Below, piece after piece: positions 9,760 through 55,901 of a DNA stretch of 64,000 nt. Position numbers and translations under genes: made by a program. Positions within the stretch are counted from its first letter, which is position 1; every line of letters starts with the position of its first letter. The notes under the pieces were generated by a model. The model was not told where the DNA came from. It was given only the letters and a program-made list of their open reading frames with translations, and searched no databases. The stretch comes from Candidatus Bathyarchaeota archaeon (GTDB taxonomy: Archaea; Thermoproteota; Bathyarchaeia; Bathyarchaeales; Bathycorpusculaceae), in NCBI GenBank assembly GCA_963739305.1, contig CAVTZU010000020.1, positions 32,001 to 96,000 on the forward strand, written 5' to 3'.

Positions 9760-9780
9760 ATCTCATCCGTAAAGAAAAGC

Positions 9781-9813: not shown

Positions 9814-9823
9814 TCAGGTCTCA

Positions 9824-34522: not shown

Positions 34523-34816
34523 TTATGGTTCTTCTGGTTTCTTGGTTTCTTTCTCGACTTCGGCTGTTATGTCTTCTATTGGTTTAGGCGGTGGGGTTGT
34601 GGCCATGGTCCAGCCGATCCAGCCTCCTATGCCGAGTATGGCGACGAAGCCTATGAAAACGGGCACGGCGATGATCCAGAATTGTACGTTTGATTGTGTG
34701 ATTTGTGTTCCGAAGACGTTTAGCCACTGTGGGTAGAATAGAGTGACGATGTAGAATAAGCCTACGATGGCGCAGACTAGAAAGATTGTTGCTCCGATGG
34801 TTTGGTCTTTGCTCAA
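34523..34816 (-). CDS. Conserved archaeal-type two-TM protein (DPM2-like pattern)
   Basis: TTG start after a GAGGTGA RBS. SKDQ.IG...WIGWTMATTPPPKPIE. Confidence 0.75.
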   Translation of the reverse strand: MSKDQTIGATIFLVCAIVGLFYIVTLFYPQWLNVFGTQITQSNVQFWIIAVPVFIGFVAILGIGGWIGWTMATTPPPKPIEDITAEVEKETKKPEEP

Positions 34817-35013
34817 GTATGGTTCACCTCCTAAGCTCACGTGATTCATGGAATCCGGTTCATGTTGAAGTTGCTGTCTCGCAGATGGTTAGGCACTGCT
34901 ATCAGATAAAAGTCTTCTTGCGACCAGCAGAATGTCTCTTGATTTTTCATTTACGACTGAGATGATTCTCGTGTGACGCGCGTAGCGCGCGCGGGTGGGT
35001 TATTCTGGCTTTC

Positions 35014-35205
35014 GTGTGTCTTGTAGCTTTTTCTTGGGGGCTGTATATTCTCCTGTACTCAGGATTGGACGAATCAATCAGGTTTGCACTACTGGCTATC
35101 GGAGGAGTCGGAGTGATTTTTCTTATGGGTATGACGGTGCTACTGGTCATTTGGTATCACAACCCGCCCCCACCAAAACGAGGCAGGATTAGCGCGCGCA
35201 AATAA
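35014..35205 (+). CDS. Small two-TM protein, possibly 5'-truncated
   Basis: Two hydrophobic segments. Bracketed by GCGCGC motifs at 34977-34993 and 35190-35199. Confidence 0.4.
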   Translation: MCLVAFSWGLYILLYSGLDESIRFALLAIGGVGVIFLMGMTVLLVIWYHNPPPPKRGRISARK

Positions 35206-35220
35206 CGATATATCAAATAG

Positions 35221-35288
35221 TAGAATATTCCTAGCGATAGAATATTCTTAGAAATGGAATACTCTTAGTCATAGAATATTCTTCGGTA
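35221..35288. repeat. Four tandem 17-bp repeats with palindromic core GAATATTC
   Basis: TAGAATATTCCTAGCGA / TAGAATATTCTTAGAAA / TGGAATACTCTTAGTCA / TAGAATATTCTTCGGTA, directly upstream of a TATAAAAA box near 35298. Confidence 0.85.
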
Positions 35289-35346
35289 GGAAGAATCTAT
35301 AAAAAAGTTCTATAGCATTCTTCTAACGATCGTTCTATTTGATTGG

Positions 35347-35577
35347 GTGAACAGTACGGTTAACTGTCCGCGATGTGGAAAGACCCTGACGAAAGAGAGT
35401 GGCAAGAGTCAGTACTGTTGTGAAAACGAACATTGTCCAGTCTTGTTTGTGCGCTCGCCGGCAAACCCATTCAAGAGAAGAGTGGTTTTCGAGTCCTCCG
35501 TGAGTGGGGCAATAATCAGAAAAATCGAGAAAGCAACTGCTCACGAAATTTCACTTATTCGCTCAACACGCGCGTGA
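35347..35577 (+). CDS. Small zinc-ribbon (CPxCG) protein
   Basis: CPRCG...YCCENEHC, with a TATA box about 45 nt upstream. Confidence 0.7.
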   Translation: MNSTVNCPRCGKTLTKESGKSQYCCENEHCPVLFVRSPANPFKRRVVFESSVSGAIIRKIEKATAHEISLIRSTRA

Positions 35578-35796
35578 TTAGCCCGCCCTATGTGGCGCGC
35601 TCTTCGTCACTGTGCAGATGCTTTACCAATGGATATTTACCTGAAAGATCGGCTGCAATTCTATCGATACCGTCAGTGCTTCCATCTTCTACGATCAATA
35701 CTATGTGCGAGTTGGTGATCTCTTAAAAAAAGCCTGGGCCGTGAGTGAGTAGTCGCACGCTAAGACTCAGTTGGAAACAAAAAAGGGCCTCTATTG

Positions 35797-36063
35797 CTAA
35801 GGAAAGATACGCCAGAGAGCCATCTGCACCCGTGAAAATGCTCTAAAGAACACGGAGCGCTTTTTGTAGAGCACAAACGCAAGGGGTATGACCAACAATA
35901 GGAAGAGAATTCCATACTGTGATAGGAAAACTGAAACCTGATTGATTGGCCCTATTTGCCCTCCTACCGGGTTCGGTGTCGGAGACGGGCTCGGCGACGG
36001 AGATGGTACGCCACTTTCGCTTGGTCCAGCCTTGACGTTCAAACCGTCTACCTTTCTGTTCAA
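35797..36063 (-). CDS. Small protein with PS/PT linker, PVGG...PIN motif and C-terminal membrane anchor
   Basis: PSPSPSPSPTPNPVGGQIGPIN followed by a TM and YKKR. A TTTTATA box lies upstream. Divergent from the radical SAM gene. Confidence 0.6.
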   Translation of the reverse strand: MNRKVDGLNVKAGPSESGVPSPSPSPSPTPNPVGGQIGPINQVSVFLSQYGILFLLLVIPLAFVLYKKRSVFFRAFSRVQMALWRIFP

Positions 36064-36188
36064 GATTTTCCCCGCAAACTACTGCATATTGATCACTATA
36101 AAAAACTTTGCATGATGCGCTATTGCATAAGGTGAGCTTAGACAGCCTTTTTATCGTGAACAATCGACTAGAACTTAGAGTGCTCGGA

Positions 36189-37523
36189 ATGTCGAAGTAT
36201 TCACTCAGTTCTAGCGTTGTTCTCAGATCTGAACCTCAATACTATGACACCTACGCAGCGTTCGACTGCAAGAAAGTTGAAACCGAATTCCTGACCAAAG
36301 ACGAGTACATTATCCTTGAGAACGTCCACAACAAGCCAAAAACTGTGCCTGAGATCTCAGAAGAACTCGAGATAGATAGCAAAACCTGCGAACGATTTCT
36401 GAAGCGTATGACCGAGCAGGGGTATGTCAAGGAAGGCGGCGGTTCTCCTGAGCCAATCCTATTAGAAAGGGAAAAGATCAACCCTGAGCTTTTCAAACAA
36501 TTCGGTCTCCCTTTCCTGTCAGCGCCAACGACCGTCGACGTCTTCATCACGGACCGTTGCAACTTGAAATGCGTTCACTGCTTCGCAAACGGGGATACAA
36601 GAAACAGTACTGAGCTTTCTGTTAACGATATGGAATCGATCTTCAACCAGCTGGAAAGAATGGGGGTTTTCGAAGTCAGAATTACAGGCGGCGAACCCCT
36701 TCTCCATAGTGAAATAGAGAAAGTTATTCTGACCCTGAAACAGAGGAGGTTTCGAAAGGTAATTCTGACGAATGGCACACTGCTTGACGAGACAATAGTC
36801 AAGATGCTCAATGAGTCAGGGATGATTCCAACGATTTCGCTTGACGATTCGAACGCTCAGGGATTCGACCTCTTCAGAGGAGTCAAAGGAGCCTTCAACA
36901 GGACAATCGCTGCCTTAGAGCTTCTGCAAAGAAGCGGAATTGAGTACGGGATAAACTGCTGCTTGCACAGAGGCAACTTGGACAGGTATGAGGAAATCAT
37001 AACCCTCGCTGAGAAACATGGAGCTCGGCGCATAGCATTCTTGCATCTTGAACCTGTGGGGAGGATGAAAAACAACTTGCAGTTCCTTCCATCCTACAAA
37101 GAATACGAGTCGATGGTGCCCGTTCTATCATTGGCAAGATCACATCACAGAAGGATAGATGTTGCCTTAGACGTTTTCCTGCATTGTTATCCTCTGAAAG
37201 AATCAGTCCTCGAAGCCAAAAAGGGGTTCATTTCTTGTCAGGCTGGCAAATCAAAGATGTCGATAGGCAGTGACGGTTTCATATACCCTTGCAACACCGT
37301 CATATCAGACCCGCATTGGCGCATGGGCAACATCGGGAACGAAAAGATCTCGGATATATGGTTCTCAAAAAGATGGGCCTTCTTCAGAGGCGAGGTAATG
37401 ATAAAGAGTCTGCAGAAATGCAGCGAGTGTAGCAAGAGAGCAAAATGTCAGGATTTCTACTGCAGGCTCCTTCCATACGCTACAAGCGGAAACCTTTTCG
37501 GGCCCCATCCCAAATGCGCATGA
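36189..37523 (+). CDS. Radical SAM/SPASM protein with N-terminal winged-helix (RRE/PqqD-like) region
   Basis: CNLKCVHC, ITGGEPLL and LTNGTLL. SPASM pattern CQAG...I.SDG.IYPC...C..C.....C....C. Confidence 0.9.
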   Translation: MSKYSLSSSVVLRSEPQYYDTYAAFDCKKVETEFLTKDEYIILENVHNKPKTVPEISEELEIDSKTCERFLKRMTEQGYVKEGGGSPEPILLEREKINPELFKQFGLPFLSAPTTVDVFITDRCNLKCVHCFANGDTRNSTELSVNDMESIFNQLERMGVFEVRITGGEPLLHSEIEKVILTLKQRRFRKVILTNGTLLDETIVKMLNESGMIPTISLDDSNAQGFDLFRGVKGAFNRTIAALELLQRSGIEYGINCCLHRGNLDRYEEIITLAEKHGARRIAFLHLEPVGRMKNNLQFLPSYKEYESMVPVLSLARSHHRRIDVALDVFLHCYPLKESVLEAKKGFISCQAGKSKMSIGSDGFIYPCNTVISDPHWRMGNIGNEKISDIWFSKRWAFFRGEVMIKSLQKCSECSKRAKCQDFYCRLLPYATSGNLFGPHPKCA

Positions 37524-37608
37524 TTCTTTTCCGGGTCAATCCGCAATTAGGTTCCATGCTAGGCCGGATGATGGAAATTGTACAAATTCCAGATTGACTT
37601 TGATTTGA

Positions 37609-38475
37609 TCAGGGCAAATTGCATACCAGTTCACTCTGGTAGAAGGGGTCTCGGCCAACTTCTCTATTCACTTCCTCAACTGCCACTTTGGGGCTCAATC
37701 CTTCTGAGCACAAGGCTTTCACAAGTCTTAGCGTTGCTTCATCTGAATGCGACAGGTCAACGTATCCATCCCATGAAACGTAAGCTTTGACCCCTCTTTC
37801 AAAGAATCTCTTAATCATGTACGGTGTCGCCGTCCCGTTGCATCCAGTCAGAATTATCGTCGTGCCATTCAAGCCATCAGGCTTGTTGTTTCCCAGAAAC
37901 ACCGCGTTCAAGGCAAAATAGGGAGGCTCACTTTCGTTAAACGTGTATGCTTTTTTCACAGCTCCTGCGAGCTGCTCGTTGACGTACTTGGATTCTGTGT
38001 ACTTTTCCCCGCTGAAAAGGTACAGAAACCCGTCCGTATGTATTGTGCTGTGAAGCCTAAGGATGAGAATTTTGTATCCACCGACGTTTCTCAACAGGTC
38101 AACGGTAACGTTTGCTCCTCTGAAGACATCAACCGTGTACCCCGCGTTTGAGAGGCATTGCACCATGCTTCCAGTCAGCGTAGAGTTGGGTTCCGTGTCA
38201 TACAAGCCGTCCAGTATAGCGGCCCTAGGCACAGTGACATCTGCATGCGGTTGAAACTGCTGCAGTTGAGGCTGCTGAGGTGCATAGGACCAATTCACCC
38301 AGAGAATGCCAGCAGAGAGAAGAAGGAGGCCAAAGCCAACAAGAATTACCACAGTTCTCAAACGTCGATAGTGCGGTCCTTTCTCGGCGATTGCTTTGTT
38401 CCTTTCTTGGGTCAGCTGCGTGAATTGCCTGTTTTTCTTCTTTGCTTGTCTCTTGCTTGCTCTGCTTCGTGTCAA
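37609..38475 (-). CDS. Membrane-anchored protein with possible clan CD (CHAT/gingipain-like) fold
   Basis: N-terminal basic stretch and TM, then ILILRLHS, IILTGC and GVKAYVSW...V. Confidence 0.55.
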   Translation of the reverse strand: MTRSRASKRQAKKKNRQFTQLTQERNKAIAEKGPHYRRLRTVVILVGFGLLLLSAGILWVNWSYAPQQPQLQQFQPHADVTVPRAAILDGLYDTEPNSTLTGSMVQCLSNAGYTVDVFRGANVTVDLLRNVGGYKILILRLHSTIHTDGFLYLFSGEKYTESKYVNEQLAGAVKKAYTFNESEPPYFALNAVFLGNNKPDGLNGTTIILTGCNGTATPYMIKRFFERGVKAYVSWDGYVDLSHSDEATLRLVKALCSEGLSPKVAVEEVNREVGRDPFYQSELVCNLP

Positions 38476-38608
38476 TTAGACCACGCAAGTCAGGCTACTG
38501 TCGTTTACTGGTCTTAAATAAGTTGTCTCGAGCCCGCGCGAAGCTTTCTGCAATGTTCGATAGCACACGCAGGAAAGCATAATAATGTGATCGTCAGAGC
38601 AGAGAATC

Positions 38609-38905
38609 ATGACATCTCAAGAAGCTACGGTAAGAGTTTACGTGCTAGTGGAAATTCAGCCTGGAAAAGAGAAAGAGTTTGCCGAAAATGTCATTTCGAA
38701 AGGATTCATTCAAGACTCAAAAGTGGAGAGGATGGATTTTGTTCATGGATCTTTTGACCTCGTCGTCGTGCTTAACGGAGCGATGAAAGACGTAGATGCG
38801 AGAGTGATGGCGATGAGGAAATCTCCGTTTGTGCGAAGGACGGAAACGCTGATTTCTTTCGAAATGTTCAATTGGGAAGACCTGACGGGTAGACTGAACG
38901 AGTGA
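38609..38905 (+). CDS. Stand-alone Lrp/AsnC ligand-binding (RAM) domain protein
   Basis: VYVLVEIQPGKE, VHGSFDLVV and VRRTETL. Confidence 0.85.
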   Translation: MTSQEATVRVYVLVEIQPGKEKEFAENVISKGFIQDSKVERMDFVHGSFDLVVVLNGAMKDVDARVMAMRKSPFVRRTETLISFEMFNWEDLTGRLNE

Positions 38906-38919
38906 ACCTGAAAGAGTCA

Positions 38920-39151
38920 AGTCACGCGAGCTAGGAATGGAGTTCGTTTTCGCGCGAGCTCTTTGAATGCAGATAGTTGCAGCAAACAATGCCGCCACCG
39001 TCAACAGAGGCAGAATCACATACGACGAATATTCAGGCACAAATTCGTTTCCGAAAGCGTAGATCTTATGATCCATAGAGTCTGCGTAAACACAACCGCC
39101 AGCAACAGCAGGAGAAGATAACACGTGGCTTCCTGTTGTGTAATTCCACAC
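38920..39151 (-). pseudogene. 3' fragment of a PQQ-repeat beta-propeller surface protein with PEF-CTERM-like anchor
   Basis: WNYTTG..V.SSPAVA.G.VY..S.D.KIYAFG followed by VPEY, a TM and basic residues. The 5' part is absent and the fragment begins at a GCGCGCGC motif. Confidence 0.75.
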
Positions 39152-39158
39152 GCGCGCG

Positions 39159-39263
39159 CTAAATGGTTCCTTCTGCCCTAACTGGTTGAATGTTAAATGC
39201 CAAAGTCAACATGCTTGTTAACAATAGAATGAACATAACTGCAGAAAATATTCGCTTCAGCAA
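39159..39263 (-). pseudogene. Orphan signal peptide of the beta-helix gene family (MLKRIFSAVMFILLLTSMLTLAFNIQPVRAEGTI*)
   Basis: Near-identical to the N-termini at 50895 and 55740. Terminated by the TAG of the TAGCGCGCGCG motif. Confidence 0.85.
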
Positions 39264-39372
39264 TCCCCGTTCCCCAACATACATGGGTGCAATCGCTGGA
39301 TATGAATTGTGAAAAAATCTTCTATGACACTTCGATTGGTCTAGAGGTCACGAGTGAAACGCTAGCGCGCGC
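39161..39372 (-). repeat. About 210-bp upstream region + signal-peptide repeat, copy 1 (others at about 50793-51005 and 55651-55811)
   Basis: Direct alignment by eye shows shared CGCTTCAGCAATCCCCG, AATCGCT.GATATGA.TTGTGAA, CACTTCGATTGGTC and CACGAGTGAAACGCTAGC. Confidence 0.9.
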
Positions 39373-39424
39373 ACTGCGAAGGCAACCGCAAGTGTTTTAT
39401 TGTCACTATCATAGAACTCAGTGC

Positions 39425-39745
39425 ATGGGCATCTTTGACAAGCTTAAGAAAGGCTGGGAAATAAAGAAGACTTGGGGAACAAAACCACCTACTCAACCAG
39501 AGTACGAGCCAACGCCTCCGGAAGCACATGGCCGCTACGGTAGGCTTGCTGCATGGATCAAAACAAATTATGGAAGCAGGTTCAGAGAAGGTGCGACAAG
39601 CGTTGAGGTTGAAGCACAGCTTACAAATATTCTCGGAGAGCTGGAGGCAAAAGGGGCATTCAAGAAACACCCTAAGATCGCGAATGGCTTCAGAGCATAC
39701 ATAAGCGAAAGGAAGTATGGTGACCTCGTCAAAGTAAGTGAATGA
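39425..39745 (+). CDS. Hypothetical protein, translationally coupled to the primase-like gene
   Basis: ORF from MGIFDKLKK. Its stop overlaps the next ATG (ATGA). Confidence 0.7.
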   Translation: MGIFDKLKKGWEIKKTWGTKPPTQPEYEPTPPEAHGRYGRLAAWIKTNYGSRFREGATSVEVEAQLTNILGELEAKGAFKKHPKIANGFRAYISERKYGDLVKVSE

Positions 39746-41085
39746 AAGAAGCATATGCAGTAGAGATTTCGATGGATTCAGGTTTCTCGCCCCTACTGCG
39801 ATCTCAAATTAAATCCTACTACAGATCCAACCCAGTAGATCTAAAGACAACGTCACCAGTCAAATTCCGCCACTTTCGATTCCGACTTGAAGACACGTCC
39901 TTTTACAAGGTTAAATGTAAAATACGCGATTCACGGGACCTGCGTGAACATCTTGTAAAGAAGGCACCACTAGATGTGTACTACTCTACTGCTTGCTGGC
40001 TCAACCCGCACATACTTGGTAGCAGGGTTGAAAAAGACGTTTTGAAAAATCTAATGATTTCCTGCGATCTTGCCTTTGATATAGACCGCGGTGGCAAATT
40101 GAAACTCGAAGGTGCGAGACAACAAGCCATTGGAATAAATGAATTCCTCAAATCAAAAGGAATCAGTGTGCGCTATTCTGCGTTTTCCGGAAGCAAAGGT
40201 TTTCATGTGGTATGCGACGACCCCTGGAACGACGAGATAACAGAAGAGAATCCTTGGAAACGCGAGTCAGAGGCGATTAGAAGGAGAAAGAGGATAGTGC
40301 AAGAAGCGAAGGAGAGAGGCATAGTCTTCGATGAAAAGGTGACGGTCGACACGCGCCGCATAATCAGGTTGCCAGAAACAATAAATTCAAAGACTGGTTC
40401 CGTGTGCACCGTCTTGAGCAAGAAGGAGCTTGAATCCGACATCTACGAAATAGTTAAATTGGCAAGACGACATGCTATTATTACTCCCAGGATCCCGTTG
40501 CGCAGACGCGTGCGGGAGATGACACATGATTTCATCATGGGCAAAATCCCTGGGTCGGTGGGCCGACTGGGAGTGAGGCCCACACCCGAAGAGAAGCCTT
40601 GTTATTCTACGTTCATCACCAACAACATACCTGGAACAAGGCTCAAGATTCCAATGCTGGAGTTTGGCGGCTGGAGGAAAATGGAGGAGATAACTGGTGT
40701 CATCAAGAAGGTTCAACGCCAGTATGGTCTTGGAGACGTTTTCATCTTTGGCGATGGCAATAGGTTTTCGGCCTTCAGTCTGAAGGCGGTTTCAAGGAGA
40801 AGAGCTGAAAAGATTCTGTTCGCGGCTGGTTCCATGAATTTGAATGCATGCAAGAAATACGGATGTACGTTTATGCGTGTGGGAAAAACCGTTGGAATGA
40901 ACGGGAAGGTCACGCGCAGAGAGCCTGAACTAATAAGAGTGTTGCAGTCTGATCTGCGGGGTCAAGCGAGTAGAACGCATTTCGAGTTCCTGTCATCACT
41001 AGGCGTGAAAACAAGCGGAGAGAATATGGAGTTCTGCGGAGCGCGAAAGGAAAGACTCGAGCTTGTGCATGCCATAATTGAATAG
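39742..41085 (+). CDS. Archaeo-eukaryotic primase (PriS-like) with C-terminal extension
   Basis: DVYYS, motif I DLAFDID, motif II FSGSKGFH, and D.KVT.D.RRIIRLP.TINSKTG. Confidence 0.85.
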   Translation: MKEAYAVEISMDSGFSPLLRSQIKSYYRSNPVDLKTTSPVKFRHFRFRLEDTSFYKVKCKIRDSRDLREHLVKKAPLDVYYSTACWLNPHILGSRVEKDVLKNLMISCDLAFDIDRGGKLKLEGARQQAIGINEFLKSKGISVRYSAFSGSKGFHVVCDDPWNDEITEENPWKRESEAIRRRKRIVQEAKERGIVFDEKVTVDTRRIIRLPETINSKTGSVCTVLSKKELESDIYEIVKLARRHAIITPRIPLRRRVREMTHDFIMGKIPGSVGRLGVRPTPEEKPCYSTFITNNIPGTRLKIPMLEFGGWRKMEEITGVIKKVQRQYGLGDVFIFGDGNRFSAFSLKAVSRRRAEKILFAAGSMNLNACKKYGCTFMRVGKTVGMNGKVTRREPELIRVLQSDLRGQASRTHFEFLSSLGVKTSGENMEFCGARKERLELVHAIIE

Positions 41086-41127
41086 CGTTCACAGGCATCG
41101 GTGCCCTGCGAATTCTTTGTACTCTTG

Positions 41128-41556
41128 TTACGGCAGACCAAAATAATCTCTGACGTCTCTTGTTCGGAAGTAAATGAAAGAGACAACGCTGAAAAGCAAA
41201 GTTGCCAAAGGGATGATAAGCATAAACCAGTTGGAACTCGCGGACCATTCAGCGTTCACCAACATAGCTGAGAGAATCACTAAACTGAAGATTCCTAGAA
41301 CTGTCCAATAGACAAGTGATAGATACCAACCTGGCCGTAAGCCGAGCAACATAATAATAGCGAAGAGGAGACCGAAGAAACCAATGATTGCGGGTGATCC
41401 CGCAACAATCAAGCCGATGAAAGGCAAGCCTGTCAAACCACCCATTGACGGCGCCATAGACACTACAAAGAGTAACATGCCTAGCGCAATTGAAACTGCA
41501 GCCCCCATCAATTGAAGGATTGCTATTCCAACAAGACCCAATGGTCTCTTTGCCAT
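41128..41556 (-). CDS. Four-TM membrane protein
   Basis: KRPLGL..IAIL N-terminus, hydrophobic helices, and C-terminal Y....V..YF. Confidence 0.7.
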   Translation of the reverse strand: MAKRPLGLVGIAILQLMGAAVSIALGMLLFVVSMAPSMGGLTGLPFIGLIVAGSPAIIGFFGLLFAIIMLLGLRPGWYLSLVYWTVLGIFSLVILSAMLVNAEWSASSNWFMLIIPLATLLFSVVSFIYFRTRDVRDYFGLP

Positions 41557-41595
41557 GCTTCATCACCAAACATTAACCTGTGCTTGTCAGGGGTA

Positions 41596-42810
41596 CTATT
41601 TTCCAAAGTTGTTGGCAAGGATGATTATGTCAAAGATGTCCACTTCGTTATCATGGTTGAGGTCTGCTTGACCGTTCCATCTAGGATGCCCGGGATAGAA
41701 CCCGAAAGCTGATGCCGCTTGAACCGCGTCAAGAATGTCTACGATGCCATCAGTGTTCAAGTCTCCGATGAGAGGAACATAGGGTTGCATTAGTGGATAA
41801 CGATCTTGATTGTTCTCGTCAATAACGTAAGGTGTATCTCCTATGCCGTCACTTCCAGTCTCATTCTGATAAGGACCTTTAGAGACGTCTGTTCCATTAT
41901 AATCACTCCAAGAGTTTCCGCCAGAAGGATAACCATCATCCCAAACGTTCACTGAGTTGCTAATTACTTGCTGAGCGTTGTTGATGAAATTGTTGTGGAA
42001 AATGCTGTTATAGCTTGAAGAATAGTAAAGATAGATACCATGCCCGTTGTTTGTTATGTTGTTGTCAGAAATGCTGTTATAGCTTGAAGAATAGTCAAGA
42101 TAAAGGTAGATGCCGTACCCGTTGTTTGCTGTTATGTCGTTTCCACAAATGGTGTTATAGCTTGAAGAATAGTAAAGCCAGATGCCATCCCCGTTGTTTG
42201 TTATGTTGTTTCCAGAAATGCCGTTGTTTGAAGAATCGTAGAGATAGATTCCGTAATATTTGTTTGCCGTTATGTTGTTTATAGAAATGGTGTTATGATT
42301 ACTGGAGGCATGGAGATAGATGCCAATATTACCGTTGATTGTTATGTTGTTCCCAGAGATGATGTTATAAGAGGAGCCATAAAGATAGGTGCCAACCCTG
42401 TTGTTTGCCGTTATGTTGTTTCCAACAATGGTGTTGTCTGAAGAGTTCCCCAGAAAGACGCCGTAATCGTAGTTCCTGATGTTTGTGTTTTTGATCGTTA
42501 CGTTGCTTCTTCCAGTTATGTCTGTTCCTCTGGACTCATAAGCATATGTTCCTAGGAGCGCGTAGCCTGCGCCATCCACCATAATGTTGTCTCTCTCAAT
42601 CACGATTCCACCATAATCGCTTGTGATGTTGCCAGTTAGTGTGTAGACATCCCCGTTTCGCTGAATCGGAGCTGTCGATGGGTCTATGCCTCCGTCAGCC
42701 CGTATGTAAATGGTTCCACTTGCTCGAACTGGTTGAATGTTGAACGCCAAACTGAACATGCTCACCAATAGAAGAGTCAGCATAGTTCCGAGAACTACTC
42801 TCTTTGACAT
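41596..42810 (-). CDS. Secreted NosD-like parallel beta-helix protein with dockerin-like domain (array gene 1)
   Basis: Signal peptide, TIYIRADG, GIYL..SS.N.I..NNIT repeats, WDDGYPSGGN and GDLN.DG.VDI.D...DLNHDNEVDIFD. Confidence 0.9.
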   Translation of the reverse strand: MSKRVVLGTMLTLLLVSMFSLAFNIQPVRASGTIYIRADGGIDPSTAPIQRNGDVYTLTGNITSDYGGIVIERDNIMVDGAGYALLGTYAYESRGTDITGRSNVTIKNTNIRNYDYGVFLGNSSDNTIVGNNITANNRVGTYLYGSSYNIISGNNITINGNIGIYLHASSNHNTISINNITANKYYGIYLYDSSNNGISGNNITNNGDGIWLYYSSSYNTICGNDITANNGYGIYLYLDYSSSYNSISDNNITNNGHGIYLYYSSSYNSIFHNNFINNAQQVISNSVNVWDDGYPSGGNSWSDYNGTDVSKGPYQNETGSDGIGDTPYVIDENNQDRYPLMQPYVPLIGDLNTDGIVDILDAVQAASAFGFYPGHPRWNGQADLNHDNEVDIFDIIILANNFGK

Positions 42811-42825
42811 TGTCTCCTCCAAATG

Positions 42826-45800
42826 CTAATGTTTTCCAAAGTTGTTGGCAAGATGATTATGTCAAAGATGTCCACTTCGTTGTCATGGTTGAGGTCTGCG
42901 TGACTGTTCCATCTCGGATGCCCAGGATAAGACCCGAATGCAGATGCCGCTTGAACCGCGTCAAGAATGTCTACGACGCCGTCAAGGTTTAGGTCTCCAG
43001 CAATAGGAAGATACTGTCTCTGTGGCAAAAGAGGATAATTGTCACGATTGTATGCGTCGATAACATACGGTGTATCGCCTATTCCGTCACTGCCAGTTTC
43101 GTTTTGACATAGCCCATTGTAGAAATCAGTGCCAGTGTAGTCACTCCAGTAATTGCCGCCAGAAGGATAACCATTGTCCCATTTGTTGCTAGAAGAGTTT
43201 GCGAGAAAGACTTGATCTGAGTTATTTATGAAATTGTTGTGATTAAAAGTATTGTCGTGCACGTCAAGATCTTCTATTTTGACACCCAGCGAATTGTTCT
43301 CTATTTCATTATCGATGATCGTATTGAAAGCGCAATATAATGGGGGGATTGCACCGGAATACAATTCAATTCCATTGCTACAGTTTCTTATGGTGTTGCT
43401 CCTCAGGGTATTGTTTTGTGATTCTGATAGGACTAATCCACAATAGCGCGCGCCCGATATGGCGTTATTGTATACGATGTTAGCTAACGATCTAAACAGA
43501 TAAAGACCAGTACTAGTGTTGACCACGGTGTTACTGTAAAGTGCATTCCCATTCGACTGGCCTGCATGGATACCAAATTCAGTGCACGCGTCCAGAAAAT
43601 TGTCGTGTATGATGTTGTCACTGGATTCCCAAAGGCTGAGGCCATATTCATCATGAATAAAAGCGTTATTACATATGATGCTGTAATTCGAAAACGACAA
43701 CTGAATGCCAGCGTCAAAAGAATTGGATCCACTATTCTGTGCAGTAAAACCCGTCACTGTTACATTGTCTTCTACTATCTTCACAACTGCTCCATAATTA
43801 CTTCCATCTATAATCGTCGCGTCCCTGCATTCTCCAATAAGCGATATGCTCTTGTTCACAACTACGTGTTCCGTGTAGGCTCCGTTTCTGACAAAGATTG
43901 TATGTCCATTCACAGTCTCTGGAGCATCGATTGCAGATTGGACAGTCAGATAGACCAGACTTGTGTTGAGATTTTGAATTGAGCCATAAAGATGAATCAA
44001 CGGATAGTTATCTATATTGCTGGCGTCAATAACACGTGCTGAATCTCCTATTCCATCGCTCCCAGTCTCGTTCTGATAAGGACCATTGTAGGCGTCTATG
44101 CCTGTGCAGTCGCTCCAGTAGTTGCCGCCAGAAGGATAACCACCTTCCCAAACGTTTTCAAGAGAATCGCTAGTGGAGACCTGAGGGCTATTATTAACAA
44201 AACTATTATGAAAAATCATGTTGTTTGACGACTTGAACAATCGAAGCCCATCATTATCGGTGTAGGCTACTGTATTGTCTGTCAAGACGTTATTGTTGGA
44301 TAACCAAGTCAGCAGAATGCCGTAGAAGAGGTTGTCGGTTACGTTGTTGCCTGAGATAATATTGCTAGATGAGCCATAAAGAATGATGCCGTCACCGTTG
44401 TCTGCCACGTTGTTACCTCCTATGGTGTTGTTAAGTGAGTCTTTGATATAGATGCCATCCCATCCTGCGACTCTCACATTGTTGTCTAGAATAATATTGT
44501 TAGACGAACTAAGGAGACTAATGCCGTTCAAGTTGTCTACTACCTTATTGCCAAAGATAGTATTGTTGGACGAGCCGGAAAGCATGATGCCAGAAAGCCA
44601 ATAATATGCTCTACCGCAATTCTTTACCGTGAATCCACCAAACTTTACACCGTCCAATACTGTAACAGTATTTCCATTCAACCTGCCATCGATAATTGTG
44701 GTATCTCTGTTTTCTCCAAAAAGCGACACGGGTTTATTGACAACAATGTTTTCGTAATAGGTTCCTGCCTCAGCGAAGAGTGTGTGCCCTTCTAACGTTT
44801 CGTTTGCGTCTATGGCTCCTTGAATTGTCGCGTAGCCCAATCCAGTGTTAATATTGTGTACTGGCAGAGGGCTCCAAGGATGTATAAGCGGATAACGGTC
44901 TTTGTTGTCAGCATCAATAACGTATGGTGCATCTCCTATTCCGTCGCCATTCGCGTCCACACCAGAATAGTCACTCCAATAGTTACCGCCACTTTGATAA
45001 CCATCATCCCACACATCGCTAACAGACGCTGCGACATATGCTTGTGGCCTCCTCACGTTTCCGAAAAAGTTATTGTGGAAAATGGTATTATTAGAAGAAA
45101 CCATGTTTAGGCCATACTTATGATTGCTTGTTACATTATTCTTGATTATCAAGTTCTCGTAAGAAGACTCTAGCAGGACGCCATCATCCGTATTATCTGT
45201 TATTGTGTTGTTAGCAATAAGGTTATGATTAGAAGAGTGCAACTCGATACCGCTGTAACCATTCTCGGCAATATGATTGCCAATAACAGTGTTATTGCTG
45301 GCAGAAGATACAAACCAAATACCGCCCCAACCATTGCTAGTTATGGTATTGTTGCTTATAATGACATTTTCTGAGTAATCCCAACCATAGAATTCGACAC
45401 CATTCCGAACATTATTCTCTACGGTGTTGTTTACTATGTTGTTTTTCGAGCTCGAAAATCTTCCACTCACGCCATAACTATTGTGGCTTATGTTGTTGCT
45501 CACTATGTCGTTGTTCTTAGAGTAACCTAAGTCAATGCCGTAATTATTGTTCGTTATAGCGTTGCTTGCAACGATGTTGCTGTTAGAGTCTTTCCATAGC
45601 AAAATTCCAAACATTTGATTGTTGGTTACGATATTACCATAAATCGTGTTGCCAACTGAGTAGTTCAAGAACATACCGTATTCAAAATTCGTAATCTGTG
45701 TTCCCTTGATGGTAACATTACTTCTGCCGTTTAAGAAGAGACCATAACCAGTCCTTGTGCCTTGAAGTGTGTATCCGTTTCCGTCAATTATCACGTTGCT

Positions 45801-48654: not shown

Positions 48655-50895
48655 CTAGTGTTTTCCGAAGTTATTGGCTAGGATGATAATGTCAAAGATG
48701 TCTACTTCGTTGTCATGGTTGAGGTCTGCTTGACCGTTCCATCGGGGATGCCCGGGGTATGAGCCGAAAGCCAAAGCTGCCAATATCGCGTCTGATATGT
48801 CAACGGTCTTGTCGAGATTCAGGTCTCCGGCAATAGGAACATACTGTGACTGTGGCAAAAGAGGATAATTGTCCCGATTATCTGCGTCAATAACATATGG
48901 CGTATCTCCTATTCCGTCGCTTCCAGTCTCGTTCTGATATAGCCCTTTGTAGATGTCAGTGCCGTCGTAATCGCTCCAATAGTTGCCGCCAGAAGGATAA
49001 CCATCATCCCAAATATTCAAAAGACTGCCGTAGACTTGGGCATTCTCTTTGAAAAAGTTGTTGTGATAAATGACCGCTCCACCAGTTTCAGTTAGTCCGA
49101 TATTGTATGTGTTGTTCTGAAGCAGATTTGAGCAAATCGCATTGCCGCTTCCACACTCCCACAGCACGATGCCAAACTCTTTGTTGTTAACTACGTTGTT
49201 ATCGTGAAGAGTGTTATTAGCCCCCCATTTTATGTGTATGCCTCTGTTGTTGTTTCCCACATAATTATCCATCACAGTATCGTTATTGGAATCGCCCAAG
49301 AAAACTCCGTCGTATTGATTATCACTTATGATATTAGTGCTTATACTAATACCATTAGAGTAGGTCGCATGAATGCCATCTACTCCATTTTGTATAGTAA
49401 AACCAATGATGGCAACACCGTTCGCACTTACCGAAACAACGTTTCCAGTTTCGTTACCGTCAATGATTGTGGTCTCTCTATCTTCTCCTATGAGCATCAA
49501 AGATTTGTTTACTACCACATTTTCGTAATATGCTCCATCGTCTACAAATATTGTATGTCCTTCCAAAGTTTCTGGGGCGTTTATGGCTTCTTGAATTGTT
49601 GCATAGTCCAACCCTGTGTTGATGTTGTGAACTGGAAGGGGATTCCAAGGACTTATTAGCGGATAGTGATCCACATTGTTCGAGAAAACGCTGTATGGCG
49701 TGTCTCCTTTGCCGTCGCTTCCAGTCATGTTCTGATAAGGACCACTGAACAAGTCAACGTCATCATAGTCGCTCCAGAAATTGCCGCCAGAAGGATAACC
49801 ATCATCCCAGACACTAGCATAATAGGAATCATAGACGTATGCTTGTCGGGTGTTGTCGATGAAGTTGTTATGGTACACTTTATTGGATGAAGAATACGAA
49901 ACGCCGACACCGCAACCGTTGTCTGAAATGTTGTTTCCACTAACAATGTTGGACGATGAATAAGAGAAGTAGATGCCAGCCCAGACGTTTGCCGTTATGT
50001 TGTTTCCAATGATGCTGTTGTTGTCTGAAGAAAATTCGAGCACGATACCATACATGCCGTTTGCAGTTATCTCATTTCCACTTACCATGTTGGATGAGGA
50101 ATAAGAGAGGTAGATGCCGTGCCTATGGTTTGCCATTAAGTTGTTTCCACTTATTCTTGCGTCGGTTGTCTGCCACAATTCCACGCCAATAGCCGTGTTG
50201 GATAGGTTGAGATTTTCCACTGTTATGCGACTGCAGTTAATGAGTATGACCTGCCCAGCATCTTCAACAGCATAGTCTGTAACTCCTTCGAGATAAACAA
50301 GGGGTTTGCCGTTCACCAGATTACCGAAAACAACATTGTCACTTGAAAACATTACCAGTAGGCCATTGTCGAAAAACGTGTTTTCGCTAATTATGTTGTT
50401 AGAAGAGGAATCAAGACGGATGCCAAAATCGTCGTTTGTTGTTATGTCGTTTCCGCTTACATTATTATATGACGAATACTCGAGATGGATTCCCTCAAAG
50501 TTGCTTGCAATGCTATTTCCGATAATGCTGTTGTTTGAAGAAGAGTCAAGCCCGACGCCATCAGAGAATGTTGTGATTTCCGTGTTTTTGATAGTCAGGT
50601 TGCTTCTTCCTGAAAGCGTTATTCCTGTTCCGCTTCCTGTTCCTTGAACGGTGTAGCCTGCTCCGTCAACCACAATGTTATCTCTCTCAATAACAATAGA
50701 ATCATTGATGTTATCAGTAAAAGTGTACGTTACATTGTCAACGCTCGAAATTCGAGCATCTGGAGGGTCTATGCTTCCGTCTGCCCTAATGTAAATGGTT
50801 CCTTCTGCCCTAGCTGGTTGAATGTGAAACGCCAACGTCAACATGCTAGTCAACAGCAAAATGAATATAACTACAGAAAACACTCGCTTCAGCAA
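48655..50895 (-). CDS. Secreted double beta-helix protein with dockerin-like domain (array gene 4)
   Basis: Same modular motifs as the other array genes, with its own upstream repeat. Confidence 0.9.
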   Translation of the reverse strand: MLKRVFSVVIFILLLTSMLTLAFHIQPARAEGTIYIRADGSIDPPDARISSVDNVTYTFTDNINDSIVIERDNIVVDGAGYTVQGTGSGTGITLSGRSNLTIKNTEITTFSDGVGLDSSSNNSIIGNSIASNFEGIHLEYSSYNNVSGNDITTNDDFGIRLDSSSNNIISENTFFDNGLLVMFSSDNVVFGNLVNGKPLVYLEGVTDYAVEDAGQVILINCSRITVENLNLSNTAIGVELWQTTDARISGNNLMANHRHGIYLSYSSSNMVSGNEITANGMYGIVLEFSSDNNSIIGNNITANVWAGIYFSYSSSNIVSGNNISDNGCGVGVSYSSSNKVYHNNFIDNTRQAYVYDSYYASVWDDGYPSGGNFWSDYDDVDLFSGPYQNMTGSDGKGDTPYSVFSNNVDHYPLISPWNPLPVHNINTGLDYATIQEAINAPETLEGHTIFVDDGAYYENVVVNKSLMLIGEDRETTIIDGNETGNVVSVSANGVAIIGFTIQNGVDGIHATYSNGISISTNIISDNQYDGVFLGDSNNDTVMDNYVGNNNRGIHIKWGANNTLHDNNVVNNKEFGIVLWECGSGNAICSNLLQNNTYNIGLTETGGAVIYHNNFFKENAQVYGSLLNIWDDGYPSGGNYWSDYDGTDIYKGLYQNETGSDGIGDTPYVIDADNRDNYPLLPQSQYVPIAGDLNLDKTVDISDAILAALAFGSYPGHPRWNGQADLNHDNEVDIFDIIILANNFGKH

Positions 50896-51040
50896 TCCCC
50901 GTTCCCCAACCTACATACGTGTAATCGCTAGATATGACTTGTGAAACAAACTTCTATTGCACTTCGATTGGTCAGAGGGCACGAGTGAAACGCTAGCACG
51001 CGCTAAGTCGTTAATAGAAGCGGCAATGAAACCCAGGAAG

Positions 51041-53487: not shown

Positions 53488-55740
53488 CTAATGCTTTCCA
53501 AAGTTGTTGGCAAGCATGATGATGTCAAAGATGTCGATAATGTTGTCATGGTTGAGGTCTGCCTGTCCATTCCAATTTGGATGCCCGGGGTACGAGCCGA
53601 AAGCCAAAGCTGCCAATATCGCGTCCGATATGTCAACAATTCTGTCCAGGTTGATGTCTCCCAACACAAAACCATATGGCTTCACAAGCGGATACCAATC
53701 TATATTGATTGTATCAATAGTGTATGGAGTGTCGCCTATTCCGTCGCTGCCAGTCTCGTTCTGATAAGGACCGCTGTACAAGTCAGTGCCGTTGTAATCA
53801 CTCCAGTAGTTGCCGCCAGAAGGATACGCGTTGTTCCAGATGTTGATTCCTGGCGCATGCGCCGCGGGAAACGTATCATTGATCATGTTGTTGTGGAAAA
53901 TGAGGTTGAGGCTACCATATGTGTAGAGCGCAATCGTTGATATGCCGACAAAGCTGTCAGCAAAGGTGTTGTCGTGAATAAGATTATTACTGCTCCCCAA
54001 AATCATCGCTCCAACTTCCAACATCCGCAGTTCGGGTGAAAGGTCCACCCAAGCCTCCTCGGGGAAAAAGGGGGCCATTTCAGGAAAGCGATGCATTTCT
54101 AGGAGAGACCAAATGTCACTCCCACTCACCAAATTCCCCGAGATGATGCTACCGAATGTATCGGGGAGGTAGATTCCAAGTGGATCTCTCAAAAGCGTGT
54201 TGTTTGTTATTATGCTACTGTTGCTCGAGATCCGCATTCCCACTCCGTTGTCAACAATAATGTTTCTCTTGACCGTGGTGTCGAAAGAAGTATAATCGAC
54301 GGACGACCACTCATCATCTGCGAGTGACCAGTAGCGATAGCCTTTGGCATCAATAGCATAAACGGTGTCACTTATCGAGTTGTCTGTTATAATCGTGTTG
54401 TTTGAAGCTACCGCAAGAACGCCTTGAACGTTTTTCGACAGGTTCAAACCCTCAACCAATATGTTCGTGCAGTTTATCAGTATCACGCATCCAGCGTCTG
54501 TTGGAACTTTTTGGTCGTGCTGATTTATCCAATAGATTATTGACCTGCCATCAACAGTGTTGGACACGTCGATGTCATTCACGAGTTCAACTAGCGGATC
54601 CATGTTAGCTGAATTCGCCAAAGAGAGACTATATATTTGGGGAGGTATGCCAAAGTTCATTTGGCCACCGCTAATACTGTTGTTTCTCATTGTTGTAAAT
54701 TTTGTAACCTCGGCCAAGTAGATGCCGTTCAAATTATCTTCAAGTGTATTCCCAACTATAGTGTTGTTGTTACTGTATATCCATTCATATATGCCGTAAG
54801 CGTTCCCAGTAATGTTATTGTCGACGATCGAAGTGTTATTCGAAAAGAGAAGCAATATGCCCTGCAGGTTGTTCGATAGACTGCAGCCCTTTACCGTGAT
54901 ATTATTGCAGTCGTTCAACCATACGTACCCAGCATCAGTTGGGACATGCTCATCGCTTCGATTATCCCAGAAGTAAATGGGTTTTCCATTCACCGTGTTA
55001 GAAGAATCTATATCATTGACAACTCCATGTCTTGCAGGGGTGCCACCCACGAAGTTTGCTGTTTGTCCGTCTATAATAAGCCCAAAGTTGTAAGTGTTGC
55101 CGGTCATATTGTTGTTTCTAAGAATGTTGTTATTCGAGTAACCCTCTAGAGTCAAACCGTGTTTGCTGTTTGAAACAGTGTTGTTGACTATGATATTATC
55201 AGCAGAGCTGAGAAGATGAATGCCAAACAAGGTATTGTTTGCTAAGAAGTTATTAGATACCGTATTATTGGCAGAACTTCGCAGCAGAATACCTCCATAA
55301 AGATTGTTTATGATTTGATTGTCTTCTATTCTATTGCCAGTGAACGTCGGAAGTAATCCCCACCAATACACAACAACACCGTATTCTCCGTTTCTTACTG
55401 TAAATCCGCTTATGCTAGAATTATTATTTATAAGCCATATTGTTCCATAGGGTCCAGTTCCGTTTCCATCGACAATCGTATTATCCCTGTTTTCTCCGAC
55501 AAGAGAAACAGTCTGGTTTACCCACACGTTTTCATAGTATGTTCCGTTGTGTACGTATATTGTGTCTCCGTTGCTCGCTGCGTTTACTGCTTCTTGTATC
55601 GTGTGAAAGTCTGCTGGTCCATCATCGTCCACAGTCCATGTTCGCGGTTCTGCCTTGACAGGTTGAATGTTAAATGCCAAAGTCAACATGCTTGTTAACA
55701 GCAAAATGAACATCACCACAGAAAATACTCGCTTCAGCAA
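53488..55740 (-). CDS. Secreted beta-helix protein with dockerin-like domain (array gene 7)
   Basis: WTVDDDGPADF.TIQEA, two ID.SNTV.G..I..W inserts, and a dockerin. Confidence 0.9.
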   Translation of the reverse strand: MLKRVFSVVMFILLLTSMLTLAFNIQPVKAEPRTWTVDDDGPADFHTIQEAVNAASNGDTIYVHNGTYYENVWVNQTVSLVGENRDNTIVDGNGTGPYGTIWLINNNSSISGFTVRNGEYGVVVYWWGLLPTFTGNRIEDNQIINNLYGGILLRSSANNTVSNNFLANNTLFGIHLLSSADNIIVNNTVSNSKHGLTLEGYSNNNILRNNNMTGNTYNFGLIIDGQTANFVGGTPARHGVVNDIDSSNTVNGKPIYFWDNRSDEHVPTDAGYVWLNDCNNITVKGCSLSNNLQGILLLFSNNTSIVDNNITGNAYGIYEWIYSNNNTIVGNTLEDNLNGIYLAEVTKFTTMRNNSISGGQMNFGIPPQIYSLSLANSANMDPLVELVNDIDVSNTVDGRSIIYWINQHDQKVPTDAGCVILINCTNILVEGLNLSKNVQGVLAVASNNTIITDNSISDTVYAIDAKGYRYWSLADDEWSSVDYTSFDTTVKRNIIVDNGVGMRISSNSSIITNNTLLRDPLGIYLPDTFGSIISGNLVSGSDIWSLLEMHRFPEMAPFFPEEAWVDLSPELRMLEVGAMILGSSNNLIHDNTFADSFVGISTIALYTYGSLNLIFHNNMINDTFPAAHAPGINIWNNAYPSGGNYWSDYNGTDLYSGPYQNETGSDGIGDTPYTIDTINIDWYPLVKPYGFVLGDINLDRIVDISDAILAALAFGSYPGHPNWNGQADLNHDNIIDIFDIIMLANNFGKH

Positions 55741-55901
55741 TCCCCGCTCCCCAACTTACATAGGTGTAATCGCTAGATATGACTTGTGAAGAAATCTTCT
55801 ATGGCACGAGTACTTGCCACAAATAAGAGTGGTTGCGGTAGTGCGCGCGCTAAACCATGTGAAAAGATAACTGCAACGTACTTTTGGTACGCTTGAGTTT
55901 C

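Follow-up and report, generated by a model that had tools for sequence, protein, structure and literature searches.

How did the tail of one surface-protein gene come to be joined to the head of another at a short run of alternating G and C? This question is raised by positions 38927-39372 of a 64,000-nucleotide stretch (the window) from a Candidatus Bathyarchaeota archaeon of the family Bathycorpusculaceae. The window corresponds to positions 32001-96000 of contig CAVTZU010000020.1 (C20) in assembly GCA_963739305.1, a bin of 36 contigs, 2.32 Mb and 47.4% GC (G000), and the public runs that contain the stretch are peat and freshwater-sediment metagenomes. Coordinates without a contig label are those of the window. 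The palindromic octamer GCGCGCGC lies both at the joint, within a longer GC run, and at the other end of the joined fragment. Very likely, the account given below is correct as to how the locus is built, the native origin of the left motif, the border role of the right motif, the genus-specific, 15- to 18-fold over-representation of the octamer and its location at the borders of accessory DNA. The complete account, in which the locus is the dead relic of one illegitimate join that arose by breakage at the octamer followed by end joining, is held with moderate confidence.

Fragments of two surface-protein genes meet at the left motif

The fragment to the right of the joint had been read from the sequence alone as a copy of the upstream region and signal peptide of a nearby beta-helix gene, and this was borne out. 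By alignment and BLAST, 39160-39372 matched 50792-51003 with 88% identity over 213 nt (E 5e-70), and the part 39172-39331 matched 55648-55807 with 89% identity over 160 nt. The source gene (48655-50895) encodes a protein of 746 aa with Pfam matches to NosD (228.4 bits), Beta_helix (163.3 bits) and Dockerin_1 (19.4 bits). On the minus strand the fragment consists, in order, of GCGCGCGC followed by TAGCG..., about 80 nt of upstream DNA, an ATG at 39284, MFILLLTSMLTLAFNIQPVRAEGTI and a TAG codon, and it retains five residues beyond a signal-peptide cleavage site predicted by eye. The homology ends on the left at ...CCATTTA followed by GCGCGCGCG (plus strand CGCGCGCGCTA, 39151-39161), and the TAG that truncates the peptide after GTI is formed by TTTA and the G of the left motif; alignment and translation agree with the earlier description of this end. 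On the right the homology ends just past GCGCGCGC (39365-39372), the motif itself being inside the matching part. The paralogue has a one-mismatch motif at this limit (plus strand GCACGCGC, ~50996-51003) and diverges there too, as had been described.

Left of the motif, the minus-strand frame reads (S-A-R-)VWNYTTGSHVLSSPAVAGGCVYADSMDHKIYAFGNEFVPEYSSYVILPLLTVAALFAATICIQRARAK, which comprises one propeller blade (VWNYTTG...IYAF) and a hydrophobic anchor. This agrees with the proposal that the last blade and anchor of a PQQ-repeat protein lie across the left motif. The first 33 residues of the tail shared 45-64% identity with eight 40-residue blades encoded in C4:12814-13833 of G000 (tblastn, best 64.5%, E 8e-8). 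The protein to which those blades belong (C4:11836-15045, 1069 aa, PQQ_2 211.8 bits) also contains NosD, beta-helix and dockerin domains. Against family models the tail alone gave E 0.3 for PQQ_2 and E 0.011 for BamB, both under the cut-offs. The anchor shows the tripartite PEF-CTERM-like pattern of VPEY, a 19-residue hydrophobic stretch and QRARAK, and is 42-48% identical to PEF-type tails in C28 and C23. TIGR03024 did not match the tail at E values up to 1, the similar C28 tail scored 15.1 bits (cut-off 23), and the C23 tail also fell short. A search for longer public-protein relatives of the tail gave two matches (P0001 and P0002), both with PQQ families; in neither does a PEF-type anchor follow a PQQ blade, and a seeming match between the anchor and the beginning of the P0001 beta-helix domain was weak. 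The open frame of the tail continues without a stop past the anchor down to 38717, that is, 70 codons into a neighbouring module, where it overlaps the module's own 98-codon open reading frame (ORF) on the opposite strand.

The signal-peptide frame and the blade frame are offset by one base, indicating that the join is non-productive. Microhomology at the joint at 39160 amounts to 1 nt at most. The view that parts of two surface-protein genes were joined here into a product that is now frozen and without function is supported.

The left joint was bridged by k-mer contigs from two public peat runs (X1 record 3, 39037-39250; X2 record 10, 38795-39326), so that continuity across 39151, on which the earlier description depended, is present in the contigs of both. 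The bridging depth was 17.5, compared with 20.8 in the unique flanks; X1 and X2 belong to one study and may be the source samples. A contig from a second study (X5) ended at 39138, short of the joint. The right joint was covered by X3 record 20 (39255-39394) alone, which reaches less than 31 nt past the motif; in the X3 contig, 39394 is joined to 40651, and the second part carries 17 mismatches and probably comes from a relative. If a contig had been mis-joined at a short repeat in a strain-mixed bin, the locus would be an artefact of assembly. The bin does show 7.8% contamination or strain heterogeneity, some contig ends overlap at 95-99% identity, and contigs often break at the motif. However, a repeat of 8-9 nt cannot mis-join k=31 graphs, the Logan contigs of the two runs cross 39151 at a depth like that of the unique flanks and with 3-4 mismatches, and the same type of joint occurs in the single-contig genome G001, so that an artefact is extremely improbable. 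The overlapping contigs are strain variants (e.g., the ends C21:1-16, C11:16, C22:68 and C12:4844), and assemblies fork at the motif.

The left motif appears to be native coding sequence

In an alignment of 50 blade repeats from four relatives (G001, G002 and G008 among them), the bases under the left motif were those of the blade-linker codons ...N-A-T-T-G-A-x-V/I-W-N-Y-T-T-G. The homologous bases were GCGCGCGG, GCGCGCAA, GCGCGCTG, GCGCACGC and similar sequences coding for G-A-R/Q/L/K. In context they read ...acgg GCGCGCGG ATATGG (G-A-R-I-W), GCGCGCAAGTATGG (G-A-Q-V-W), GCGCGCTGGTATGG (G-A-L-V-W) or GCACGCATC (in G-A-R-I). The octamer is already contained in a sequence of the ancestral type ...GGC GCG CGC GTG TGG... 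(G-A-R-V-W), and the first G of the left motif is where the relatives' blades start to match in BLAST. The beta-helix side is native up to TTTA, after which the intact gene continues with TTTACATT. The paralogues that continue as GTIYIR, namely the window gene 48655-50895 and one gene in G005, lack the motif at that position, in line with the sequence-only reading.

Since the blades of relatives carry the motif bases as codons, the left motif appears to be native PQQ coding sequence that was used and not made by the join, and the break on the PQQ side would lie at the outer edge of the GC run. The motif had been proposed to be either created at the joining event or used for it. Creation is contradicted by the native Gly-Ala-Arg/Leu/Gln codons at the left joint, and use is consistent with the position of the palindrome exactly at the joints.

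The right motif is shared by two kinds of module

The promoter and signal-peptide module represented by the fragment heads genes with differing mature parts at 53488-55740 in the window, at C9:69739-71925, and in genomes G003 and G005. After the module, the mature protein begins with EGTIYIRADGS in the window gene and QGTIYIRADGS in G005, both of which are beta-helix proteins, with EPRTWTVDDDG in 53488-55740, with EAGLIESPWPMFHHD in the PQQ protein C9:69739-71925 and with GKVVVPDDFPTIQEAINA in G003. In several copies the module has the motif, or a decayed version of it, at its upstream end, for example GCGCGTGC (~50996-51003, minus-strand reading) and GCGCGCGC (55843).

On the other side of the right motif lies a module with an archaeo-eukaryotic primase-like gene (39742-41085; Pfam DNA_primase_S, 29.6 bits), here called the PrimPol module. 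It is 84-86% identical in two other Bathyarchaeia metagenome-assembled genomes, in which its contexts differ. In three genomes the PrimPol homology starts at the octamer (GCGCGCGC in G000, GCGTGCGC in the PFL10 bin and GTGTGCGC in G004), with unrelated DNA beyond. Judged from these comparisons, the right motif appears to be both the regular 5' border of the promoter and signal-peptide module and a border of the PrimPol module. The description of the fragment as a cassette bounded on both sides by the motif therefore overstated its symmetry. Because the right motif is an ordinary module border, the simplest history of the locus is one deletion and not an excision at two motifs.

Decayed motifs at homologous borders (window 50996-51003, L009:~1000 and L010:~3620) carry C-to-T or G-to-A changes at CpG. 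The forms GCGCGTGC, GCGTGCGC and GTGTGCGC fit a deamination-type decay, possibly with cytosine modification.

The octamer is over-represented and lineage restricted

In G000, GCGCGCGC occurs 359 times with about 23 occurrences expected (strand-collapsed), a number not attributable to chance, and the single-contig complete genome G001 contains 464 copies. The two-strand counts were 718 against 46.4 expected in G000 (15.5-fold) and 928 against 50.5 in G001 (18.4-fold). In both species it was the most over-represented of the 8-mers with at least 40 two-strand counts, and the other 14 palindromic octamers composed of G and C had 1-46 copies each. The lengths of alternating GC runs ranged from 6 to 13 nt with a mode of 8, and all lengths from 6 to 10 were enriched.

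The octamer flanked by TA (12-mer) occurs 29 times in G000, where about 0.1 copy is expected. Among the 31 genomes sampled, the 12-mer was present in G000 and 8 of the 10 other same-genus genomes and in 0 of 20 genomes from 19 other genera of the family or order; a reversed control pattern was absent from all 31. The conserved span around the motif is 8-12 nt, with no conservation beyond the TA flanks. Extended or site-private palindromy was not found, complementarity past the octamer being at background after 2 nt. The motif as part of a longer element of the repetitive extragenic palindromic (REP), bacterial interspersed mosaic element (BIME) or miniature inverted-repeat transposable element (MITE) type, with at least 20 nt conserved, was considered and rejected, as only 8-12 nt are conserved.

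The octamer marks the borders of accessory DNA

The octamer sits at non-conserved gene borders (8-15% of them), at the points where recent duplications end, at indels between strains and where contigs break. The ends marked by (GC) runs are far too common genome-wide for chance, and the motif is a hallmark of accessory DNA. In G000, 248 of the 359 octamers (69%) are fully intergenic, in convergent, tandem and divergent spacers alike, and the copies are clustered and frequent near contig ends. The octamer lies 0-30 nt past a stop codon in 68 of 179 downstream measurements and mostly at least 40 nt before starts, and 17 of 2513 ORFs stop on or against it. Two convergent gene pairs have both stops formed by or abutting one motif (C10:18651-18662, where TAGCGCGCGCTA supplies both, and C9:71923-71935, TGAGCGCGCGCTA).

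Synteny was assessed for G000 and G001, which share 1267 reciprocal best hits (median identity, 74%). The motif was present in 5 of 652 syntenic spacers of G000, compared with 18 of 198 broken spacers, 66 of 814 spacers between a conserved and an unconserved gene and 109 of 830 spacers between unconserved genes. With spacers of at least 60 nt, the counts were 5/239 for syntenic spacers against 76/637 (Fisher P 8e-7). The reciprocal analysis of G001 gave 8/647 in syntenic spacers versus 116/888 and 132/864, and for spacers of at least 60 nt 8/249 versus 108/586 (P 1.6e-10).

The ends of intragenomic repeats (at least 85% identity and at least 80 nt) were compared with the motif after exclusion of ends within 30 nt of contig ends. 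In G000, 23 of 304 recent repeat ends lay at -9 to +2 nt of a motif, compared with 0.78% of 20,000 random intergenic positions, and in G001 the numbers were 43 of 625 and 1.2%. The enrichment at recent duplication ends was 6- to 10-fold, and older repeats in G001 showed no excess (14/2132). The repeat ends fall into two classes, one with the motif inside the shared segment (distance d of about -8, in both partners) and one with the motif just outside it (d of 0 ± 2, in one partner). There were 26 repeat ends at d -3 to +2 in G001.

The expectation of the sequence-only reading that other truncated or captured genes would carry the motif was met by several cases. A small gene at C17:14859-15240, copied from beside an integrase gene in C30, and a fragment at C18:31172-31378, consisting of the last 27 codons and downstream DNA of gene C20:121637-123127, both have full motifs on each side, and their sources have none. 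Many further motif-marked truncated or captured fragments are present in G001. A syntenic empty site for the C17 fragment was not found in relatives, its neighbourhood being a patchwork. Between strain variants, C2 carries a 4.2-kb insert (5782-9981) with a motif on each side, and a single motif is present at the corresponding empty site in C3 (4711). The cassettes between motifs differ between C13 and C17, which constitutes a cassette replacement. In G001, two loci separated by 700 kb share a 100% identical cassette of 585 bp that is bounded by CGCGCGCG and CGCGCGC. Of the 72 contig ends of G000, 4 are no more than 20 nt from a motif, with about 0.2 expected.

Inside the window, a gene for a ZIP-family transporter (6726-7445) lies in an insertion of about 6554-7595 with CGCGCGCGCTA at 7535, and the genes flanking it are 0-73 nt apart in the same-genus genomes that have both flanks on one contig. 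A CLC channel gene (13225-15036), likewise without a match in the genus, has GCGCGC at 13208 on one side and copies at 15097 and 15153 on the other. The C2 cassette encodes two proteins, one of 407 aa with cohesin and dockerin and one of 904 aa that is a family-5 solute-binding protein with a dockerin domain. Dockerin domains also form the end of many surface proteins of the window, which suggests a cellulosome-like archaeal surface system. A tandem duplication of about 6 kb in G001 (C1:2097193-2100922 and 2103177-2106906) contains carboxylase and methylmalonyl-CoA mutase genes, and its spacers have GCGCGCGC at 2101208, 2102071, 2107192 and 2108055.

End-joining genes are present

An operon at C32:50048-53119 encodes a LigD primase-polymerase (PF21686, 281.9 bits), Ku (PF02735, 146.6 bits) and a ligase with 3'-phosphoesterase (PF01068, 134.1 bits; PF04679, 84.8 bits; PF13298, 134.5 bits). 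Its neighbours are housekeeping genes (tRNA synthetases of the alanyl and leucyl types). Of the 10 other same-genus genomes, 7 contained Ku, the three without it being 65-89% complete; in other genera Ku was detected in 1 of 20 genomes. Twelve genes in the 2.3 Mb of the genome exceeded the Pfam cut-off for tyrosine recombinases, none of them in the window. Neither a C5-methylase (PF00145) nor Vsr had a hit in G000, and one N6/N4 methylase (PF01555) was detected. A methylation ratchet, an idea of Elhai cited in PMC5861425, was considered for the abundance of the motif and set aside, as there is no C5-methylase or Vsr to support it.

Explanations of the locus

Breakage at the octamer and end joining may have produced the relic as follows. 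The NosD/beta-helix gene would have been broken after codon 29, between ...AEGTI and YIR..., and a PQQ-propeller gene with a PEF-type anchor, or a later domain of the same gene, would have been broken in its last blade at the outer edge of the native (GC)4.5 run. The intervening DNA would have been lost and the ends joined without homology and out of frame. The deletion was possibly internal to one multidomain gene, which is conceivable because the C4 protein combines NosD and PQQ domains. The unbroken ancestor under this deletion model would have been signal peptide-EGTIYIR...beta-helix...PQQ blades...TGARVWNYTTG...anchor, with GGCGCGCGC at the Gly-Ala-Arg codons.

As for the break itself, a putative sequence-targeted activity may break DNA at octamer borders, probably in a staggered manner with both ends keeping a full copy, and the Ku/LigD machinery would then join the ends. 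A joint to another cut octamer would give clean excision, insertion or replacement of a cassette, and a joint to any other end would give a truncated chimera, as at this locus. Capture of DNA into a cut octamer would leave a copy on both sides, which would explain the spread of the motif and its clustering in accessory DNA. Targeted breakage is favoured by the one-sided joints at the edge of a complete motif, by fragments that are flanked by the motif although their sources lack it, and by a motif that is abundant and not purged. A targeted staggered break at the octamer is nevertheless a tentative proposal and somewhat doubtful. Its extension to a gene-capture system is rather unlikely. Such a system would cut at GCGCGCGC borders and paste any DNA (whole genes, gene ends or promoter pieces) by means of Ku/LigD. 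Each capture would double the octamer, the accessory genome would grow as octamer-delimited cassettes, and the relic would be a failed product. This would be a system undescribed before, integron-like without attC or dedicated integrase arm structure.

Several observations weigh against targeted breakage and end joining. A single deletion with one end at the native motif, the simplest explanation, accounts for the locus without a staggered cut, and the coincidence of that one end could be chance, at roughly 1-2% per blade. At this locus the full motif is missing from three module borders (38518/38574, 38914/38920 and 41089), and at the ZIP insertion about 50 nt separate the motif from the border, on its inner side. 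Of the recent repeat ends, about 92-93% are off the motif, indicating that it is a hotspot and not the sole route; truncated genes that do not end at the motif, which the sequence-only reading would have counted against itself, are thus trivially present, and the motif is still a hotspot. The 7-mers and 6-mers are enriched equally with the 8-mer (maximal-order Markov ratio, 1.07-1.09), so that the unit may be a (GC) run of 3-5 and not a strict octamer. The ORFs behind the synteny tests came from a crude picker (at least 70 codons, longest first) and not from annotation. The co-occurrence of Ku and motif is essentially one phylogenetic event, and G016, outside the genus, has Ku without the 12-mer. 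No nuclease, recombinase or methylase tied to the motif was found in the genome.

The same borders might arise without a dedicated enzyme if the self-complementary and very stable (GC)4 were a passive hotspot, either a microhomology of universal use or a site prone to structure (Z-DNA or slipped). Replication template switching, microhomology-mediated joining or Ku-dependent end joining would then rearrange DNA at the motif, and the relic would be an accident. Two-sided joints that keep one motif (the C2/C3 indel and the repeat class at d of about -8) agree with this explanation, as do the presence of end-joining genes and the enrichment of GC runs of all lengths from 6 to 10 and not of the octamer alone. 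However, it leaves unexplained the genus-specific excess of a fragile sequence, and also the one-sided joints at the motif edge whose sources are free of the motif (this locus, C17, C18 and the 26 ends in G001). (CG)4 is also short for a B-to-Z transition, which counts against a structural hotspot. In addition, alternating GC runs and Z-DNA-prone patterns are as a rule suppressed in prokaryotes (PMC4060949). A passive hotspot is distinctly unlikely as the explanation.

In conservative site-specific recombination, GCGCGCGC would be the crossover core, cassettes would be circles with one core, and the relic would come from a secondary-site event. Empty sites with one core and filled sites with two, the presence at two loci of one identical cassette that has cores at its two ends, cassette replacement between cores, the 12 tyrosine recombinase genes and the origin of the C17 fragment beside the C30 integrase gene all fit this mechanism. 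Against it, the core has no conserved recombinase-binding arms, TA alone being enriched beside it, and no extended inverted repeat; the cassettes occur in either orientation with promoters of their own; no integrase lies beside the variable cassettes examined; and one-sided joints would need illegitimate events. We consider this mechanism very unlikely. The same low probability is given to a functional intergenic signal, such as a boundary element, the site of a regulator or nucleoid protein or a terminator helper, that travels with accessory genes, so that the match with breakpoints is a coincidence of gene borders and the left joint a matter of chance. A palindromic 12-mer is typical of dimeric DNA-binding proteins, the placement of copies shortly after stops and away from starts suits such a signal, as do the ORFs that end at the motif, including convergent pairs that share one copy, and (GC)3 is present in many PQQ blades, so that a break there is not very improbable. 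In contrast, the enrichment at repeat ends holds against random intergenic positions and forms a sharp peak at 0 to -9 nt, with none at 21-50 nt inside the repeat, the motif is nearly absent from conserved spacers of comparable length, and the C-to-T decay of copies at orthologous borders speaks against strong purifying selection.

Other modules and genes of the window

The stretch from 37.5 to 41.1 kb is a patchwork of at least five modules, each distributed differently among relatives; the features are listed in Table 1. The orthologous locus, to which the sequence-only reading had looked for comparison, was absent as a unit from the 10 same-genus genomes, in which the modules are distributed independently. 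Beyond the PrimPol module, neither the missing PQQ blades nor the beta-helix body has left a remnant; there, 41081-41620 encodes an unrelated membrane protein of 142 aa and has no other match in G000 or G001. A tRNA gene was not detected in 30000-64000, nor an Rfam family in 34000-44000, indicating that neither serves as an integration target or RNA element here. In a promoter and terminator scan of 38500-39800, sites were not above those in shuffled sequences; the scan is of a bacterial type and ill-suited to archaea.

Table 1. Features of the joined locus and of the related module copies in the window
Feature	Position	Strand	Evidence
3' relic of a gene for a PQQ-type beta-propeller surface protein, with one blade and a PEF-CTERM-like anchor	38927..39151	-	Translation, tblastn
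Left (CG)4.5 run CGCGCGCGC, the joint	39151..39159	.	Apparently native PQQ coding sequence ..G-A-R-V-W..
Captured 5' module of NosD/beta-helix dockerin gene, ending ...AEGTI and stop	39160..39364	-	88% to 50792-51003
Dead ORF of 41 codons within the captured module	39159-39284	-	ATG at 39284
Right GCGCGCGC, apparent border common to signal-peptide and PrimPol modules	39365..39372	.	Comparison of paralogues and relatives
PrimPol module: 106-codon ORF 39425-39745 and 447-aa primase-like gene 39742-41085	39373..41089	+	Pfam, BLAST
Separate module with 98-codon ORF 38609-38905	38574..38914	+	87% to G005:C20, alone there; no full motif at borders
Intact version of the fragment (gene 48655-50895, upstream region with signal peptide)	50792..51003	-	Alignment, BLAST
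Third module copy, heading gene 53488-55740; GCGCGCGC upstream at 55843	55648..55850	-	Alignment, BLAST

The primase-like gene 39742-41085 is the sole PF01896 match in this 97%-complete genome and scores 63 bits, compared with a cut-off of 326 for the PriS equivalog; a canonical PriS was not detected in the genome by the PF01896 model. No relatives of the PrimPol gene were confirmed in IMG/VR, where the search covered close relatives only. Over 40314-40715, within this gene, the contig depth was 3-18 fold above that of the flanks in three peat runs, and a loose contig end at 40435 is preceded by ...AAACGCGCGCGCTAATTATT. The raised depth and the loose end suggest that this PrimPol piece sits in other, more abundant contexts beside the motif. 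Elsewhere in the window, the catalytic subunit of an A-type ATPase (22392-24201, minus strand) is represented by two overlapping ORFs, 22954-24201 (415 aa, N-terminal and nucleotide-binding domains) and 22392-23012 (206 aa), which may be due to a frameshift, an assembly error or a split gene.

Comparison with known systems

The nearest known counterpart of the motif is highly iterated palindrome 1 of cyanobacteria (HIP1, GCGATCGC). Both are GC-rich palindromes of 8 bp that are lineage-restricted and hyper-abundant. HIP1 reportedly bounds a deletion in a metallothionein locus of Synechococcus. In PMC5861425, the over-representation of HIP1 is given as 15-300 fold, compared with 15-18 fold for this motif, and HIP1 is discussed as a recombination or insertion site. 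However, HIP1 is spread through genes and spacers, kept at orthologous sites and quasi-periodic (PMC5861425 and PMC4390886), whereas the present motif is mainly intergenic, clustered and nearly absent from syntenic spacers. HIP1 also has cognate orphan methylases; none could be assigned here, where PF00145 and Vsr had no hits and a single PF01555 methylase was detected. The HIP survey by Elhai (PMC4390886), in its accessible text, contains neither GCGCGC nor the word "archaea". No description of this motif was found in a literature search that had subscription journals and supplements outside its reach.

Integrons resemble the present arrangement in their arrays of small cassettes separated by a site, in empty sites with one copy and filled sites with two, and in the occurrence of a cassette at several loci. 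The site here is only 8-12 bp, without the imperfect inverted repeat of 55-140 nt that forms attC. No adjacent integrase or attI was present in the loci examined (the 12 recombinases elsewhere were not screened for an IntI signature), and the cassettes have their own promoters and both orientations. Target-site duplication by transposases, casposases or CRISPR spacer integration likewise leaves captured DNA flanked by two target copies, with one copy in the empty site. Unlike the DNA inserted by these systems, the captured DNA here has no element ends, conserved internal sequence or transposase, it spans lengths of about 200 bp to 4.2 kb, and a single fixed palindrome serves as the "target".

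Ku/LigD end joining, known from bacteria and also present in Methanocella, matches the operon of LigD primase-polymerase, Ku and ligase with 3'-phosphoesterase and the joint with at most 1 nt of microhomology. It would account for sealing but not for the choice of the octamer as the break site. No paper on LigD end joining in Bathyarchaeota was found among the top-ranked papers. Restriction-driven rearrangement is similar in that a palindrome is cut, cohesive ends are re-ligated in new combinations and the site is regenerated. Recombination by EcoRI in vivo has reportedly been observed, and restriction-modification genes are said to be linked to genome polymorphisms in Pyrococcus. Restriction sites, however, are usually avoided and not 15-fold enriched, and no restriction/modification pair for GCGCGCGC was found.

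Significance

By itself the locus is a common kind of pseudogene relic; its real interest lies in being the tip of a reshuffling process that is genus-wide and marked by the motif. In peat and sediments, Bathyarchaeia belong to the most abundant archaea, and we know of no cultured member of this genus. The genomes of the genus that are at least 86% complete measure 1.5-2.4 Mb (six of seven, 1.8-2.4 Mb), compared with 0.9-2.0 Mb in sister genera. In practice, the motif predicts break and fork points in metagenome assemblies of the lineage, and a motif-specific enzyme, if there is one, would be a rare 8-bp cutter or integrase. As a border marker, the octamer would give a testable handle on the growth of these genomes, on the reshuffling of the large dockerin/cohesin, beta-helix and PQQ surface-protein families and on the role of Ku/LigD end joining in an archaeon.

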